DNA of 7,995 bases from a virus (taxonomy: Duplodnaviria; Heunggongvirae; Uroviricota; Caudoviricetes), in the IMG/VR virus record IMGVR_UViG_2740892422_000008, one strand, 5' to 3'. Shown here in pieces: positions 1 through 7,995 of the stretch. Within the stretch, counting starts at the first letter, position 1; each line of letters opens with the position of its first letter. The notes under the pieces are model-generated. The model searched no databases and was not told the DNA's origin. It saw nothing but the letters and a program-made list of their open reading frames with translations. The position numbers and the translations under genes are program-made.

Positions 1-1236
1 CTACGATAACCGCGCATTCAACATAGCTACCTGTTCGTCGTTCATGTCATCAATCCACATACCGTAAATTTCATACACCATCTGCGCAGTTTCATGCCCC
101 ATCTGGCTGGCTATAAATGCCGGGTTCGCTCCTGCCGTCAACAGCCAGCAGGCAAAAGTATGTCGCGTATGGTACGGATTACGGCGGCGAATACCAGCAC
201 GTTTTACTGCTGCATTCCATCTCGCACCCAAACTGCTTACCGAGTAATAAGGTTTCTGTTTTCCGTTACACATCCTGGGCATGAAAACAAAATGCAGTTT
301 TTGCTTTTCAGTTCTGCCGTACTCCCGATGATAAAAAGTGATTTCGCTTTTGCGATGATGCCCGGTCAGTTTGTATTGCTCCTTCAGTGCTTCAAGAGCT
401 GGCTGTAGTAGTGTTACCGTCCGGATCCCCGCATTTGTTTTTGGGGGACCGAACATATCAAGTATCGTCAGGTTTCTTCTGACATTCACAATTCCCTTCT
501 CGAAATCCACATCCTCCCACGCCAGAGCTGCCAGTTCCCCGTGACGAAGCCCGGAGTAAACGGCAAATTTCCACAAGTTCTGGCTCTGTCCTTTTTCACT
601 TTCCATTAATGCATTGAATTCTGTTTTAGATAACGGGTCAGGCTTTATTCTGTTTCGCTGTAATTTTTTTACTCCTTCAAATGGTTTGGTTGATATAAAT
701 CCCGACTGATACGCAAAACGTAACAACGAACAGAGCAGGGCGATATAGTTATCAACTGTGCGCACGGTTCTTCCTTTTTTGTTGGTTCTTGGATTATCCA
801 GGTAAAGCGTTTCTCCATGCAGCAGTTCATTCCGGTAGTTTAAGATATCGCTATAACGAATATGCGATATCGGGGTACTCTCACAAATTATTATCCTGAG
901 TGTTTTTAATTGTGATTTCGTTTTCTTCATTGTGTTTGTTGTTAACTCTGTCTCTTTAATTTTTGTCCAGATATCACAAAGCTCCCCGAACGTTTTTATG
1001 ACCCTCGTTGTCACCATTTTTGCCCCAGTGCTGGACTGGGGAAAACGTCTTAAATACTCAAATTCACCGGAATTGATTTCATGAACTATCAACGCTCTTA
1101 AATTCCCGGCTTTTTTAATGTTACTGTTAGTAACCTCCCAGCCTTTCAATGTTTCCCGACATCGTTTTCCTCGAAACATGAACCAGATGCGAATGTATTT
1201 ACCTCGAATCTCGACACCTGTTGGTAATTTAGACAT
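1..1236 (-). CDS. intR: Tyrosine-type site-specific integrase, Rac prophage IntR-like (411 aa, complete; stop codon at 1-3)
   Basis: Full-length minus-strand ORF with ATG at 1234-1236. The translation matches Rac IntR as I recall it (MSKLPTGVEIRG...). C-terminal catalytic signature of tyrosine recombinases is visible (H-x-x-R in NPYHTRHTF, tyrosine in the VYEIYGMW region). Start sits 1 nt from the xis stop, the usual xis-int arrangement. Confidence 0.92.
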   Translation of the reverse strand: MSKLPTGVEIRGKYIRIWFMFRGKRCRETLKGWEVTNSNIKKAGNLRALIVHEINSGEFEYLRRFPQSSTGAKMVTTRVIKTFGELCDIWTKIKETELTTNTMKKTKSQLKTLRIIICESTPISHIRYSDILNYRNELLHGETLYLDNPRTNKKGRTVRTVDNYIALLCSLLRFAYQSGFISTKPFEGVKKLQRNRIKPDPLSKTEFNALMESEKGQSQNLWKFAVYSGLRHGELAALAWEDVDFEKGIVNVRRNLTILDMFGPPKTNAGIRTVTLLQPALEALKEQYKLTGHHRKSEITFYHREYGRTEKQKLHFVFMPRMCNGKQKPYYSVSSLGARWNAAVKRAGIRRRNPYHTRHTFACWLLTAGANPAFIASQMGHETAQMVYEIYGMWIDDMNDEQVAMLNARLS

Positions 1237-1237
1237 A

Positions 1238-1453
1238 TCATGAGTCTTTGATAAACTGATTTATCTTTGGATAGTTGTACCAGATAATCCCTCGCTTACT
1301 GTCTGGTTTCCCTAAAGGAGATACTCGTTTGAAGTGGAAGCCTTCCACCCAACAGTTCTGGCGGTATGCTTCAATTTGTCTGGCCCCCAGACCAGTGCGA
1401 AGCATCAGGCCGTATTCAACCATCCACTCTTCATTAAAGATTACTTGTGCCAT
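1238..1453 (-). CDS. xisR: Excisionase-like protein (Rac XisR/YdaQ-like), 71 aa
   Basis: ORF immediately upstream of and co-oriented with int. I chose the ATG at 1451-1453 ([15 protein letters not shown]...) because it is preceded by GAGGTG at about 6 nt spacing; the track start at 1477 is a TTG extension. Sequence matches my recollection of K-12 YdaQ. Confidence 0.8.
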
Positions 1454-1504
1454 CGCATCACCTCTGGCAGGCGCCAATGTTAGACTGAAATTGACGCCCG
1501 ATGT

Positions 1505-1520
1505 TGATTATTAATAATCA
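1505..1520. promoter_or_regulatory. Perfect 16-bp AT-rich palindrome TGATTATTAATAATCA in the ydaC-xis spacer (candidate dimeric regulator binding site)
   Basis: Exact dyad symmetry read directly from the sequence, centred 52-67 bp upstream of the xis start codon. Confidence 0.3.
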
Positions 1521-1552
1521 GCTATGAAGTTTTAATTTGAATACAATGCAAT

Positions 1553-1753
1553 TCACGACGACTGAAGTTTCTCGCAATTAAAATTTATCAGTTTTACTTT
1601 CTGCTCTCTGGAAATGCCTGCTTCTTTTTTACCTGAGAGCATTTTTTCGCATTCTGATTTGGTTAATTTTGTTTTTGAGTACCTTGTCCAGTTAGTAGGA
1701 GTGCCACCTTCCTTTTCAATAGTGGCGGTAATTTTATACATGAACACCTCCAT
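1553..1753 (-). CDS. ydaC: YdaC-like small prophage protein of unknown function
   Basis: Minus-strand ORF (…MEVFMYKITATIEKEGGTPTNWTRYSKTKLTKSECEK…) resembling Rac YdaC from memory. Start is ambiguous: ATG at 1753 (66 aa), ATG at 1741 (62 aa, preceded by GGAGG at 5 nt spacing), or ATG at 1813 (86 aa, overlaps ralR by 80 nt). The 3' end of ralR overlaps the 5' region. Confidence 0.65.
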   Translation of the reverse strand: MEVFMYKITATIEKEGGTPTNWTRYSKTKLTKSECEKMLSGKKEAGISREQKVKLINFNCEKLQSS

Positions 1754-1928
1754 TATTATTTCCAGTGGTTCGTTTATTCCATCGTTCGAGTGCTTCTTTT
1801 TCACTTCCACCATAGCCGGTTCGGGATTCGCATCCGTTACACTTCGCGCGGTAATATCCTGAAATGGCTTTCACCGTTACTGATGGACAACCACAAAAAG
1901 GGCATGGTTTGACTTTTTCATACCGCAT
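1734..1928 (-). CDS. ralR: RalR (Lar) restriction-alleviation protein / type I toxin DNase, 64 aa
   Basis: MRYEKVKPCPFCGCPSVTVKAISGYYRAKCNGCESRTGYGGSEKEALERWNKRTTGNNNGGVHV matches my recollection of K-12 RalR. Two CxxC pairs (CPFCGC … CNGC) form a zinc-ribbon-like motif. The track start at 1943 adds 5 aa; the K-12-like start is the ATG at 1928. Confidence 0.85.
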   Translation of the reverse strand: MRYEKVKPCPFCGCPSVTVKAISGYYRAKCNGCESRTGYGGSEKEALERWNKRTTGNNNGGVHV

Positions 1929-1991
1929 TGTCTTTTCTCTCATAAAATAAAATTTTGTGATGGCGGTGAGGCTACACCGCCAAAGTAAATA

Positions 1992-3044
1992 TCAGGAGCC
2001 GATATATTCTGGTTTCATATCTGTCAGTGTCGTTTTATACGCCTCATATAATTCACCCAGATGTGGCCGGGCAGCATTCAGCGTATTTTCCAGAGCAGTA
2101 AATTTTTGTTCTGCTTCTGGATCACCTGAAGAAGGTAGGTCATTTATCATCTTCTCGATACGGGCAATAGCATTGAGACGGTGATGACGCTGAACCACTT
2201 TTCCTTTAAGTTCCGTATAGAGAGCGCCAAGTGTATTTTTATGATCTTCCACTTCCTGGCGAAGTGCTGTTGTTTCCCCGGTGCTTTGTGCCTGCTCAAT
2301 ACGTTCACGGAAAGCATCGATCCAGTTTTCCCCGGCATCCTGCTCAATAATTGTTGTTTCACGTTCCGCGCGGCAAGCGGAAGTGTTTTTATGTTCCTGA
2401 ACCGGATTAATGATTTTTTCCTGTGGCTCGTCCAGTTCGTCCCTGGTGTACACTCCAAGAATCACTTCGGGGCAATAAAGGCGCGCCCAGCGTTTCAGCG
2501 CCAGATAGGCAAGCTGCTGGCGAGGATCGTCGGCCCATAGCGTTGAATTACGTGTTCTGGCCTGCGCCAGAAGTAATTCCAGTACGCGTGGTTTACTTTC
2601 GCCGCGTAGTGTTGCCTGGACACGAACACCGATCCCGTTTTCATCGGCCAGCTTCCAGCCAGGTACACGATATTCTTTCCCTTTGTCGCTCTTCCTGATT
2701 TCAAATTTCCCGATAATTTTTTCCCACGGCCCGAACCAGTCATATTCAATACGCCCGGTTAGCGGCCCACGAGTACTGATTACGGCATTAACCAGTTGCG
2801 CTTCATATCCGAGCACACCATTCACAACGAAAGTTTTCTGAGCTACTGCGTAAGGGTTCATTTGCCACTGCATCGCCTGCATGGTGATGGCCATGCAGTC
2901 TGATGGATTTCCCCGGAGGTGTTCCGGTACAGTAGCCATGCCGGAAGCCATTACCTGGGAAAATGTCTGAATTGCAGCCAGGGACTGAGGGCTGAAAACC
3001 GCAACATTAGAGTTAATATTTTCTTGTTGAGTTAATTCGTTCAT
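1992..3044 (-). CDS. Phage single-strand annealing protein, Bet/Redbeta-like (RecT/Redbeta superfamily), 350 aa, with a ~130-aa helical C-terminal extension
   Basis: ATG at 3042-3044 preceded by GAGGAAGG, 11 nt downstream of the exonuclease stop (translationally coupled pair). Core motifs align by eye to lambda Bet: GNPSDCMAITMQAMQWQMNPY…VNGVLGYE versus GDASDAQFIALLIVANQYGLNPW…VVGVDGW, and KRWARLYCPEVILGVYTRDELDE versus KRMLRHKAMIQCARLAFGFAGIYDKDEAE. It is not the K-12 RecT sequence as I recall it. Confidence 0.72.
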   Translation of the reverse strand: MNELTQQENINSNVAVFSPQSLAAIQTFSQVMASGMATVPEHLRGNPSDCMAITMQAMQWQMNPYAVAQKTFVVNGVLGYEAQLVNAVISTRGPLTGRIEYDWFGPWEKIIGKFEIRKSDKGKEYRVPGWKLADENGIGVRVQATLRGESKPRVLELLLAQARTRNSTLWADDPRQQLAYLALKRWARLYCPEVILGVYTRDELDEPQEKIINPVQEHKNTSACRAERETTIIEQDAGENWIDAFRERIEQAQSTGETTALRQEVEDHKNTLGALYTELKGKVVQRHHRLNAIARIEKMINDLPSSGDPEAEQKFTALENTLNAARPHLGELYEAYKTTLTDMKPEYIGS

Positions 3045-3055
3045 TGTGTCCTTCC

Positions 3056-6000
3056 TCAGATGCTCAGTGCTTCAAGACGACGAAGATCAAAGTCGTTTAA
3101 TTCGTCGGTATAACTTTCGGTAATCGGTGCTGGCCAGTTGTTTGTCTCCAGGGCTTCGTTTATCTGGCGTAGCGTCCGGCGATATTCCTGTCGACCAAGT
3201 TCCAGGAGTTCCTGCGAGGCTTCCACGACTGCCACCCAGTGATAGCCAGCATCTTTGTTGACGAAGATCCAGAAAAATTTGTCCAGATTTGCCACATCGC
3301 AATACATTGCTGCGCTGAGGTGATAATCACGCTCAATAATTTCACGGTGCAGGCGATCTTTCAGTCGTTCCTGTCGCACATAACCGAGGCTGACTGACTT
3401 CACGTCGGCGCAAATGCTTTCGTATGGCAGCCGGATTTCGATATCAGGACGGACCCTGATTTCCAGCCCGGTTTCTTCATCAAACCCGAAATAGCTGATT
3501 TCAGATTTGCGATCCGGGTGGTTGAGTAGCCTTGCTGCATCAGTATTGTTTTGCAGTGCAGCGTGAATATTTTTTGCCTGTTCATACATATCTGAACTGA
3601 TAAACGTTTTCCCGGCGTTTTCTTCTTGCTGGCGTTTTTGCCAGTCCTCCAGGGTAACCAGTTCCGGGCGGATTTTCCGAGCGATTTCGGTTAATTGCTC
3701 TTTCGTGCCACTGATGTTGTAAGGCAAAGATTTAGCACGTTCTTTTTTCGCCAGTTCTGGATCTACAGTTTCAATTTGCTCCAGAAGTTGCTCCCGTGTT
3801 CCACTGGTTTTCAACAGAGGAGGGAGGTTTGCATTGTATTCTCTAATGCAGGCTTTCATTGCCGATGCAGTATGTTTCTCCTCCTCCGGAATACGCCGGA
3901 ATTCCACCGGAAGCGAACCGTAAAGGATGCCTGTTTCTTCGGCTCCAGCACTTACAGACAGTGGCTGTATAAGAGTGCTGTTGTAGCTTTCGATCCACTC
4001 TTTCATCTGCTCTGGTGTCATCAGTGCTGGCAGACTGGCATTGTGTTTTTTAATGATGGCGATCAGTTCGCTAGAAGTAGTAACCACATATTCAGGAACT
4101 GGTACCGGAATGGCATATTCATCAGCGAATTTATCCGTTTCCAGAACATAGCTGTGAATGATCCGCCCACGCAGCAGTGCATCACTTTCCTCGTTCGGAA
4201 TAGTTCCGGCAATGTGCCGTCCGTGGTAATACATCAGGCTGATACGGGCATCCTTCAGCATCGTGCTGCTTATTCCGTTGGCGGAGTGATAAACCTCGTT
4301 CGGGAGGTTTTCATAGCGGCCAGGCTCGAAATATGACGGCCACATGATTTCAGTTGCTACAGGAGCTGACGCTTCACCAGTTTCATCACTGCAATCACGA
4401 TGCGGATCGCTGCCAGCATTCTCATTGTGCGGATGTTCAGCGCCTTCCATTTCCACCGGATCTTTTTCCTTAGCTTCAACCTGATTCTCTTCATCGAATG
4501 TTTCCTGGTATGTTGCGTCGCCCGTCACCGCCCCACAGTCAGGGCAGTTATCTCCGCCAGTCTGACCGCAGGCATTGCAGACTATTTCCGGTTCCTGTTG
4601 CACTACTGGCTCAGGTTGTTTCACATCCGGGCTGGTTTTTTCCGTTTCTGGCTGGTTCTGGTACACAGAATCGCGAGTCTGGATCCCCTTAACCCATTTC
4701 GGATCGTTCGGGTCGCTAATTCCGTCAACAAATTCACCACGTGATGCAGCAAGCAATTTATCGGCATCGACAGGATTTTTTGATGGAATGTTTTTCCGGG
4801 CTTCATGGAGTTCTGCCCGCAGTTCCTGATATTTCGCATCAACAGAATTTACCGGTGACTGAGCATCCAGCGGCTGCGTGTCCTGATGATGTTTAGTTGC
4901 GTCCGGTTCCATTGTTTCAGCCTCTCCCTGTTCATCTGCCGTTGTTCCAGATGGTTGCGGTTTTTCTTCATCATCCTGTTTTCCTTCTTCTGTTACTCGC
5001 TGCGGCATCGGGGCAGAGGAGCGACCGCAGGCAATATCCACGATTTCCGGATCAGGGTTGGCATGATCGGTTTCAGTCAGTACTTTGTTCAGATATTCAG
5101 TGACGTGCGCGGGGGTGACCTCGATCCCAATTGGTGCTTCTTTTACGGACGCAACCACGATGGCGCGGGAATAATCCAGCCCGCCAGGCATGGTGATGAA
5201 TTTGTCGCGGAAAACAGAAAAGGGCGGTTTATTTTCAGCGATAATTTCCTCAATGCGTTTAGCGTGTGCCGGATGAAGGTTATAGATGTCCAGATCCATT
5301 GAACGGGCCAGTACGCCAGTGGCTACGTCGCGCGCCAGTGACGTCAGATCGTGTACGAAACCTTCGCCGCGATCGGTGAGGTTTCCGCCGCCAGCATTAG
5401 CACCGGAAGCCGTGCGAGTGATGTGTGAAACACGATTACCCTTCATCCACTCTTTTGTCAGCAGTCCTCGATCGGTGTAGTCAGCGTTCAGGTATGCTTC
5501 GAAAAAAGCAGTTATCAGTCCCAGGTTTGAATTACCAGGATTAGGGAAAACTTTGTCAGTGTCACGAACCAGTTTGTGGAGTTCGCGAATTTCCAGCGGG
5601 GCGAGCAGGCTGGTTTTGTGGGAAACAGCCAGGGCAGTAACAGCCGGTAGTTCTTCAGCCCGAGCAATGTGTAATGCCTGGAGTCCGTCGCGTGAAACGT
5701 GCGTTACCGGTTTTTCGCTGCCGTGTTGAGCAAGCCAACGAATGGGCAGTTCCTGGCCAGAAATTGGGAGTAGCATATTCTCCTCAATCTCAGTCATGTC
5801 TTCGCCGTTGACGTTGGTATTGCCTTGATAGTGAGCGTTGTCTGGTGCTGCTCCCGGTTTTAGTTCCCATGTCATGGAGTCTTTGCTGAGTTGATAGCGT
5901 TCACTCCAGGTAAAATCGATCTCACCTTCAGCGGGCAGGTCATTAACGACAGGAAAATTCGTGGCAACAGCTTTAAAATAGCTGCTCAGTTTTTTACCTG

Positions 6001-6127
6001 ACTTAACGATCAGGTAGTCCAGAGTGGCACAGGTCGATTCAAAATCGTCACTTGCCCACAGGACGACGTCAGGTTCACCGGATGATTTTTTCGCTTTCCG
6101 TAACAGGAAGAGTGGTTTTGTGCTCAT
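3056..6127 (-). CDS. recE: Exodeoxyribonuclease VIII (RecE-family 5'-3' dsDNA exonuclease), 1023 aa; N-terminal ~585 aa K-12 RecE-like, C-terminal PD-(D/E)XK domain divergent with a repeat insertion
   Basis: ATG at 6125-6127 with GAGGT upstream. N-terminus [26 protein letters not shown]… matches K-12 RecE from memory. The C-terminal domain keeps RecE-type motifs (YH…GIS.S.L.D; IRVRPDIE…ADVK matching the RPD…DVK catalytic core) but is otherwise divergent. Confidence 0.88.
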
Positions 6128-6199
6128 TGTTTTTTAACCTCAACTCAGATTAAAATTCGTTTTGTTCAGTGAATGATCTTGCCGGATACACACTGTTCA

Positions 6200-6222
6200 T
6201 AGCCTGCGCCATACGCAGGCTA
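6200..6222. other. Perfect 9-bp stem / 5-nt loop hairpin in the racC-recE intergenic spacer
   Basis: TAGCCTGCG ccata CGCAGGCTA. Followed on the plus strand by TTTCTTTC, but not by a U-tract on the minus (gene) strand. Confidence 0.3.
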
Positions 6223-6228
6223 TTTCTT

Positions 6229-6504
6229 TCAGATTTCACCTTTTAATTTCATTGCAATCAGAGTTGCCAGAAATCCGGCTTTTTTTTCTGCGGGCAGATT
6301 CTTTCCGATATGCACCAGGCTCATTTTTTTGACACCTTCGTGAAGTGTTTTAACGTTGCCTGATGGACCGTCGATATCAACTACAGTGAATGGGGTTTCT
6401 TTATTTTCTGTTTTAATCACGTAGCCAATACGCTTTCCTTCCAGATTAACTTCGTGAACAATGTCATCAGTAGTTACAACAGTGGCTTCATAACTGGTAA
6501 TCAT
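6229..6504 (-). CDS. racC: RacC prophage protein, 91 aa
   Basis: MITSYEATVVTTDDIVHEVNLEGKRIGYVIKTENKETPFTVVDIDGPSGNVKTL… matches K-12 RacC from memory. ATG at 6502-6504 is preceded by AAGGAG; the track start at 6552 is an upstream extension. Confidence 0.88.
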   Translation of the reverse strand: MITSYEATVVTTDDIVHEVNLEGKRIGYVIKTENKETPFTVVDIDGPSGNVKTLHEGVKKMSLVHIGKNLPAEKKAGFLATLIAMKLKGEI

Positions 6505-6578
6505 GTTTTTCTCCTTAATTAAGGTTGAGCGAATCCCTGCCATTGCTGGCATAAATTCAGTTTCGCATAGTCAGTTAA

Positions 6579-6749
6579 TTAAAGTTCGTGTGCCATCTGG
6601 TCTTTTTCGGCACATATTTCACTACAATATTTTTTCATTTCCGTCGTTGGGATAACTCCACGCATGAAATGAAGTGGTCTTTTAATGCTTTTGCTTTCTT
6701 TAACTTCTTTATCGCAAAGGTGGTAAGCACATTTTATTTTCTTAGTCAT
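6579..6749 (-). CDS. ydaE: YdaE-like small Cys4 zinc-binding protein, 56 aa (absent from the ORF track, below its size cut-off)
   Basis: Manual translation of the minus strand gives [56 protein letters not shown], stop TAA at 6579-6581. Cys pairs C7/C12 and C42/C46. Its ATG (6747-6749) overlaps the kilR stop as ATGA, indicating translational coupling. Position between kilR and racC matches the Rac gene order. Confidence 0.8.
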   Translation of the reverse strand: MTKKIKCAYHLCDKEVKESKSIKRPLHFMRGVIPTTEMKKYCSEICAEKDQMAHEL

Positions 6750-6970
6750 CACCATGACTCCGCCTTTACAGGTAAACCATCACGACCGAGGAAGACTTTA
6801 ATCATGCAGTCAGTAATGCATGTTTTTGTGGTCAGGTTACGAATATAAAGCTTTCGCTTTTTAATATTGTTTGCCGAGGCAATATATGTCCGGCCTTCAT
6901 GAAGAACATAATCGCCAGGAGTCACACACTGACGTGGTATTTCATCAGTTCCGAAGTGATGTGCAATCAT
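6749..6970 (-). CDS. kilR: KilR, Rac prophage cell-division (FtsZ) inhibitor, 73 aa
   Basis: [73 protein letters not shown] matches K-12 KilR from memory. ATG at 6968-6970 is preceded by GGAG at ~7 nt; the track start at 6982 adds 4 aa without a good RBS. Confidence 0.9.
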
Positions 6971-7141
6971 AATTATCTCCATTTTTACAAATGAACTTTG
7001 TTGATGCGGTGCCTGGTGCCTCCAGGTGACTGCAACCAGTTAACAATTACAGTCGGCTTTCCCACCCAAACCAATAAGGACTAACATGACTTTTAACTGT
7101 GCCACGTGCGCTTAGCCGCATTCACCGCATCACAAAACTCA

Positions 7142-7193
7142 CTTTAAAAAGGGCGGACATCAGCCGAACTTCAAGAAAAAAACTGATGCCGCC
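7142..7193 (-). terminator. Candidate intrinsic terminator on the minus strand, upstream of kilR
   Basis: Inverted repeat GGCGG(a)CATCAG (7152-7163) / CTGATGCCGCC (7183-7193): 11 bp with one bulged base and a 19-nt loop. On the minus-strand transcript it is followed directly by CUUUUUAAAGU (plus 7141-7151). No U-tract follows it on the plus strand. Confidence 0.35.
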
Positions 7194-7411
7194 AGGACTA
7201 CACACAGCAATGTCGTTATTTACAACCGGAGGCGCACTCCCACCATTTAAATTTAACAGACAAGACCGACTCTTTATGGATATCGGAAATGCGCCTTCGT
7301 GTTGTGCCCGGTTTTATTTCACCACCTCCGGGCTTCGGTGGTCTCGGCTATACCCCTACAGCGAGAGCTTGTGTTAACATTTCAATACCCTTACAGTTGA
7401 GAGTTATTGAT

Positions 7412-7900
7412 ATGTTGGATATATTTACTCCATTGTTGAAACTTTTTGCTAACGAGCCACTCGAAAGACTTATGTATACGATTATCATTTTTGGTCTCAC
7501 TCTCTGGCTGATACCGAAAGAGTTTACTGTCGCATTCAATGCTTATACTGAAATACCTTGGCTCTTTCAGATTATCGTTTTTGCCTTTTCTTTCGTGGTC
7601 GCCATTTCCTTCTCAAGATTGCGAGCACATATTCAAAAGCATTATTCATTACTACCAGAGCAACGAGTATTGCTTCGTTTATCTGAGAAAGAAATCGCTG
7701 TATTTAAAGATTTCCTTAAAACAGGAAATCTTATTATCACTTCTCCTTGCCGTAACCCGGTTATGAAAAAATTAGAACGGAAGGGCATCATTCAACATCA
7801 GAGTGATAGCGCAAACTGTTCTTATTATCTCGTCACCGAAAAATACTCCCATTTTATGAAGTTATTCTGGAACAGCAGGAGTAGACGTTTTAATCGTTAG
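7412..7900 (+). CDS. sieB: SieB superinfection exclusion protein, 162 aa, two predicted N-terminal transmembrane helices
   Basis: ATG at 7412 (MLDIFTPLLKLFANEPLERLMYTIIIFGLTLWLIPKEF…), stop TAG at 7898-7900. Matches Rac SieB from memory. Hydrophobic segments at about aa 21-36 and 48-67. The track start at 7289 is a non-ATG upstream extension. Confidence 0.88.
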   Translation: MLDIFTPLLKLFANEPLERLMYTIIIFGLTLWLIPKEFTVAFNAYTEIPWLFQIIVFAFSFVVAISFSRLRAHIQKHYSLLPEQRVLLRLSEKEIAVFKDFLKTGNLIITSPCRNPVMKKLERKGIIQHQSDSANCSYYLVTEKYSHFMKLFWNSRSRRFNR

Positions 7901-7902
7901 CT

Positions 7903-7925
7903 GGTGATGCTGCCAACTTACTGAT
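7903..7925 (+). repeat. IS1 left terminal inverted repeat (IRL, ~23 bp)
   Basis: GGTGATGCTGCCAACTTACTGAT, the canonical IS1 IRL. The matching IRR lies outside the window. Confidence 0.85.
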
Positions 7926-7957
7926 TTAGTGTATGATGGTGTTTTTGAGGTGCTCCA

Positions 7958-7995
7958 GTGGCTTCTGTTTCTATCAGCTGTCCCTCCTGTTCAGC
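7958..7995 (+). CDS. insA: IS1 InsA transposition regulator, 5' fragment (GTG start; continues beyond the window)
   Basis: GTG at 7958 followed by codons for ASVSISCPSCS…, the known InsA N-terminus. Only 12 codons are inside the window. Confidence 0.8.
   Translation, partial: MASVSISCPSCS

Follow-up and report, generated by a model that had tools for sequence, protein, structure and literature searches.

An IS1 left end within the overlapping sieB and ydaF termini of a Rac-type prophage arm

The stretch of DNA analysed here (the window; 7,995 bp) consists, up to its final 93 bases, of a Rac-type left arm, from a cryptic prophage of E. coli, in which the minus strand carries, in order, intR, xisR, a DUF1187 gene in the ydaC position, ralR, a RecT-family gene, recE, a gene in the racC position, ydaE and kilR, and in which sieB lies on the plus strand (Table 1). 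Its assignment to Rac follows from the gene order intR...recT recE...kilR sieB, and from a ttcA-type gene (PF01171, 311 aa) that is found beside intR on the source contig. In two relatives that match the arm without a single mismatch (loci L015 and L017), the racR and ydaS-ydaT module is present to the right of sieB-ydaF. Two proteins of the arm are very common: the exact RecE protein occurs in 370 blocks of the assembly collection and the exact IntR protein in 855. The window also contains a full-length match to the RalA sRNA (Rfam RF02694; 212.7 bits, E 2.4e-51) at 1557-1735 on the plus strand. This match shares bases with the DUF1187 gene and adjoins the ralR ORF, opposite to it in strand; RalA acts as antitoxin to the type I toxin RalR.

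The sieB gene is intact, and the Pfam SieB family is assigned to an identical gene. A longer sieB ORF, starting at 7289, would encode 203 aa in place of the annotated form. Base 7421 is an A, where nearly all other genomes have a G, and this yields a rare V4I variant of SieB whose exact protein was found in 5 contigs in its 162-aa form and in 10 contigs in its 203-aa form within a large assembly collection. Contigs that share SieB V4I carry either of two recombination modules, with L014, L016 and L021 having the pair of 866 and 269 aa; because the same SieB variant accompanies either RecE/RecT module, the Rac left arm is mosaic.

Convergent to sieB on the minus strand is ydaF, whose 3' end has a 4-bp overlap with that of sieB, across the sieB stop, and which is annotated in relatives at L001 4498-4653 and L005 15897-16052, with a protein that ends in ...WLEKHTVS before its stop. 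It is here that the prophage is interrupted. In all genomes listed by megablast, the alignment to Rac-type prophages runs precisely to 7902, and in relatives the uninterrupted site reads ...AATCGTTAGCT followed directly by TACTGTGTGC..., so that the boundary at 7902/7903 is fixed without ambiguity by the empty-site sequence. From 7903 onward the window reads GGTGATGCTGCCAACTTACTGAT..., identical to the ends of four complete copies annotated in RefSeq as 'IS1-like element IS1A family' (loci L002, L003, L004 and L010), which served as our references and against which the whole of 7903-7995 shows 0 mismatches in 93 bases. The terminal inverted repeat that starts at 7903 we take to be about 23 bp long, and the GTG of insA lies 55 nt inside the IS1 end, the same offset as that of the annotated coding sequence in L002. 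The final 93 bp of the window are thus a true IS1A-type left (insA-proximal) end, joined to the prophage exactly after 7902.

These results bear out the factual part of what a sequence-only reading of the same DNA had described, namely an IS1 left end that begins 2 bp past the sieB TAG, has its far end outside the window and is missing at this place from K-12. The annotation of MG1655 has sieB, ydaF, a 44-aa 'phage protein' in the ydaG position and then racR. That reading gave the position correctly, but it overlooked that ydaF runs across the sieB stop. Rather than falling between genes, the IS1 interrupts the ydaF ORF, immediately before its last sense codon.

Table 1. Features of the window, in window coordinates, and other IS1 copies found in Rac-type left arms.
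Feature	Position	Strand	Details
Rac-type prophage left arm	1..7902	-	genes on minus strand, sieB on plus; in relatives, minus-strand genes downstream of the candidate RacR-side leftward promoter
intR	1-1236	-	
RecT-family gene	1992-3044	-	350 aa
recE	3056-6127	-	1023 aa
sieB	7412..7900	+	162 aa as annotated in relatives; intact; stop TAG 7898-7900
Expected target-site duplication	7894..7902	.	TCGTTAGCT, 9 bp adjoining the IS1 end; one copy in view
ydaF remnant left of IS1	7897..7902	-	last sense codon AGC 7902..7900, stop TAA 7899..7897
IS1 left end	7903..7995	+	93/93 identity to IS1A-family; truncated where the source contig ends
Promoter-like site CTGCCA-16-TATGAT	7910..7937	+	inside IS1 end, directed into insA; consensus scan only, 9/12
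insA start	7958..7995	+	GTG, VASVSISCPSCS...; 12 codons in view; same direction as sieB
IS1, strain H1	upstream of sieB		duplication AACATTTCA
IS1, strain 573	inside sieB		duplication GCGCAAACT
IS1, CP057090	between recT and ralR		duplication GTGATGGCG
IS1, strain AF3 (NZ_OZ547117.1)	L004 3823-4590, after ydaG-position gene		no duplication; left AACGCCGGG, right GACGCTTGC

In the NCBI draft contig JRGC01000034.1 (16,694 bp; assembly GCA_000754855.1), one of the few contigs with the SieB V4I protein, the final 7,995 bases match the window byte for byte. The contig physically ends at window base 7995, inside the IS1, so that the far side of the element is not on the record. IS1 is a multi-copy element, which is why the contig, and with it the window, stops after 93 bp of it; the stop at 7995 looks like a repeat-induced break in a short-read assembly.

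The left side of the junction was looked for in 5,426 complete E. coli genomes and in viral contigs, GTDB species representatives, metagenome contigs, plasmids and phages, and occurred in none of them. A right junction, defined as either IS1 end followed by 0-14 nt and then TACTGTGTGC..., was not found in genome, metagenome or viral contigs, with a pattern that would overlook the variant IS1 end ...GTCACTACC present in locus L003. All 12 of the other examined contigs that encode the SieB V4I protein have an empty site. Two relatives, GCA_012780385.1 (L015) and Logan ERR769162 (L017), show 0 mismatches over positions 1-7902 and yet are empty at the site, and the complete genomes of RM10740 and PEC422 differ from the same interval at 2 and 3 positions, respectively. 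Since relatives with no mismatch have the empty site, and since the junction is absent elsewhere, sequence comparison indicates that the insertion of IS1 at sieB is very recent and confined to one strain.

Within the loci examined, Rac-type left arms contain four other copies of IS1, each a solitary 768-bp element, and 3/4 of these are flanked by perfect 9-bp duplications (Table 1). The exception is the copy in strain AF3, after which come a hypothetical gene, a DinI-like pseudogene and sitD, which are not Rac genes; beside this element, racR and the right-hand portion of Rac seem to be gone. Other mobile elements have also entered the arm. In several pig ETEC genomes that are near-identical to the window, recE contains an IS21-family element (IS100-type istA/istB), at 6050-7851 of L027 and L030, as another independent insertion event in the Rac arm. 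At a contig end of GCA_026737135.1 (L013 1-115), which has the same recE, the sequence departs from Rac near window position 7311, some 100 bp before the annotated start of sieB, and passes into unrelated DNA, which may mark another mobile-element junction.

The event that we consider probable for the window is a simple insertion, in which an IS1A-type element transposed into the overlapping convergent ends of sieB and ydaF, in the Rac-type cryptic prophage by ttcA of GCA_000754855.1, and duplicated the 9 bp TCGTTAGCT. A full IS1 has 768 bp and comprises insA and insB', joined by a programmed -1 frameshift, and a right inverted repeat. The right end of the present copy would read ...AAGTTGGAGTCATTACC, and the far side of the insertion ...CATTACC-TCGTTAGCT-TACTGTGTGCTTCTCC...; sieB would be intact on the left and ydaF on the right, with its terminal Ser codon and stop regenerated, and beyond it the ydaG-position gene, racR, ydaS and ydaT would follow in the same order as in the nearest relatives. 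When we simulated a 9-bp duplication of TCGTTAGCT, the Ser-stop of ydaF was restored on the far side, and both sieB and ydaF came out intact. An insertion of this kind can thus leave coding unaffected, as both of the overlapping convergent 3' ends are regenerated by the duplication. A simple insertion with a duplication is in keeping with the long-term evolution experiment, in which 5/5 IS1 movements were simple and had duplications (PMC11708052). As to the choice of target, the right flank (the 20 bp to the right of 7902; L005 15903-15922) contains two 7-mers from the IS1 ends, the left repeat's CTTACTG and the right repeat's CTCCAAC; one or more shared 7-mers of this kind arise in 10.6% of shuffles, and the homology between IS1 end and target is for that reason weak.

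An unlikely but realistic alternative is that the IS1 marks a rearrangement, through adjacent deletion or through IS1-IS1 recombination leading to deletion or inversion, with no target duplication, in which case ydaF, the ydaG-position gene and racR would have been removed or relocated, perhaps along with the prophage's entire right part. What makes it realistic is the copy in AF3, which lies about 320 bp further right, lacks a duplication and gives way to non-Rac genes as far as sitD, with the rest of Rac missing beside it. A whole-window query finds 20-34 matching places per close complete relative, some of them presumably ends of IS1, and partners for recombination between IS1 copies were therefore probably available. 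The loss of duplications via adjacent deletion or IS-IS recombination is moreover well documented (PMC11708052), and Rac is itself a mosaic, half of which is missing from over half of strains (PMC5700373). Against this stands the record of IS1 itself, as 3/4 of the neighbouring copies and all five events of the evolution experiment were simple; in that experiment about 17% of all IS events did come with deletions, and all of these involved IS150 (PMC11708052). The range of viable deletions is also limited, because removal of racR is lethal in K-12 when ydaS and ydaT are kept (PMC5700373). Finally, relatives with no SNP indicate a very young event, which leaves little time for a second step.

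It is highly improbable that this IS1 end is the border of a larger insert bounded by IS1 copies, such as a composite transposon or an IS1-flanked island. IS1 does flank composite transposons such as Tn9, only 93 bp of the element are in view, and at least 5,000 plasmid records have matches to IS1 ends, in line with how common the element is on plasmids; against such an insert, 4/4 of the other IS1 copies in the Rac arm are solitary 768-bp elements. Least probable of all is an assembly artefact in which the final 93 bases were misjoined to the end of the sieB contig with no IS1 there, since the join, although known from just one draft contig, at its end (the listing under 2 samples may be one record twice), falls exactly at both boundaries, the first base of the IS1 repeat and the last base of the empty site, which is the pattern of transposition and unlike a random misjoin, and since short-read contigs normally stop shortly inside multi-copy repeats.

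If the insertion is a simple one, no ORF need be damaged, and its effect is therefore to be expected on transcription and not on coding. In the empty-site relative RM10740, consensus scans, whose hits are consensus matches only, returned a strong, near-consensus promoter-like site, TTGACA-17-TATAGT (11/12), on the minus strand between racR and the ydaG-position ORF (L005 16395..16367). This site lies about 470 bp to the right of the insertion point and is directed leftward to ydaF, sieB (in antisense) and kilR, with no minus-strand terminator-like site found by the scan of RM10740 between it and kilR, and it is a candidate for the PL-type promoter of Rac. When RacR is titrated, ydaF, ydaG, kilR, ydaE, racC and ydaC rise together by 40-70-fold (PMC11014345), and a deletion from sieB to ydaU, which loses racR and keeps kilR, is viable (PMC5700373). 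Both the co-induction and the viability of the sieB-ydaU deletion fit a RacR-controlled leftward transcript with its start to the right of sieB and the minus-strand genes of the window in its path. From the co-induction data, together with the literature, ydaFG are probably co-transcribed with kilR-recET.

The IS1 would sit between this racR-side leftward promoter and kilR-ydaE-racC-recE-recT-ralR-xis-int. IS1 insertions are polar in either orientation, and the element has an internal terminator. Because IS1 is classically polar, RacR-controlled expression of kilR, recET, xis and int should weaken, and the element may block, through its polarity, transcription from the RacR-side promoter into kilR-recET-xis-int. 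On the other strand, the 768-bp IS1, which points in the direction of sieB, would separate the overlapping 3' ends of sieB and ydaF, and read-through from sieB would enter insA. The sieB-ydaF pair is listed in the ExcludonFinder paper among K-12 pairs with transcriptional overlap between neighbouring genes (PMC12288877).

The sequence-only reading had also proposed that outward promoter activity of the IS1 could alter the expression of neighbouring genes. This proposal is not supported by the consensus scan, which finds no minus-strand site at the junction, and whose sole site in the IS1 end, the plus-strand site of Table 1, points inward and presumably coincides with the IS1 left-end promoter. 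A hybrid outward promoter was considered by manual reading and set aside, as the TTGGCA in the IS1 end is met only by poor -10 candidates at 16-18 nt.

We put forward only tentatively, and as something rather doubtful, that the IS1 is a 'grounding' mutation, by which the toxic KilR and the excision functions would be uncoupled from prophage derepression with all ORFs intact, or else that it marks a loss of the immunity region or right arm. Were grounding to be true, a cryptic prophage would have been locked in place while every one of its ORFs was kept intact through the target duplication, and a polar effect on kilR-recET-xis-int, if true, would provide a small, clean example of an insertion sequence that stabilises a cryptic prophage. 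IS1 insertions in cryptic prophages are routine, and the present case comes from a single draft assembly, so it has little import beyond the strain. Of wider use are two points of reading: a window that ends inside a multi-copy insertion sequence may be a contig end, in which case what follows is unreadable from the same record, and insertions in overlapping convergent stop codons can be coding-neutral by virtue of the duplication.

When set beside known systems, the prophage shares with the Rac of K-12 its attachment at ttcA, the order intR-xisR-ydaC-ralR-recT-recE-racC-ydaE-kilR-sieB and a ydaF that overlaps the sieB stop, together with the RalA sRNA, and differs from it in having no counterpart there to the IS1 at sieB/ydaF and in the sizes of its recombination proteins, since the K-12 RecE and RecT have 866 and 269 aa and those of the window 1023 and 350 aa. 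The terminal 93 bp of the element are identical to those of the IS1A/IS1R-type IS1 of E. coli K-12 and relatives, from which it differs in location. The copies in H1, 573, AF3 and CP057090 are of the same IS1 type and lie within the same few kb, but they occupy independent sites, and none has the junction seen in the window. Classical polar IS1 insertions are those in gal and lac, and activation of recE by insertion is known from sbcA-type events and from Tn5. The present arrangement resembles the polar gal and lac insertions in that an insertion sequence would lie between a promoter and the downstream genes of an operon, here kilR-recET; it differs from the insertion-activated recE cases (sbcA-type, Tn5), as no outward promoter is predicted at the window junction. 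The IS1 at sieB involves no departure from the known behaviour of either IS1 or Rac, and is an ordinary, young and strain-specific insertion.
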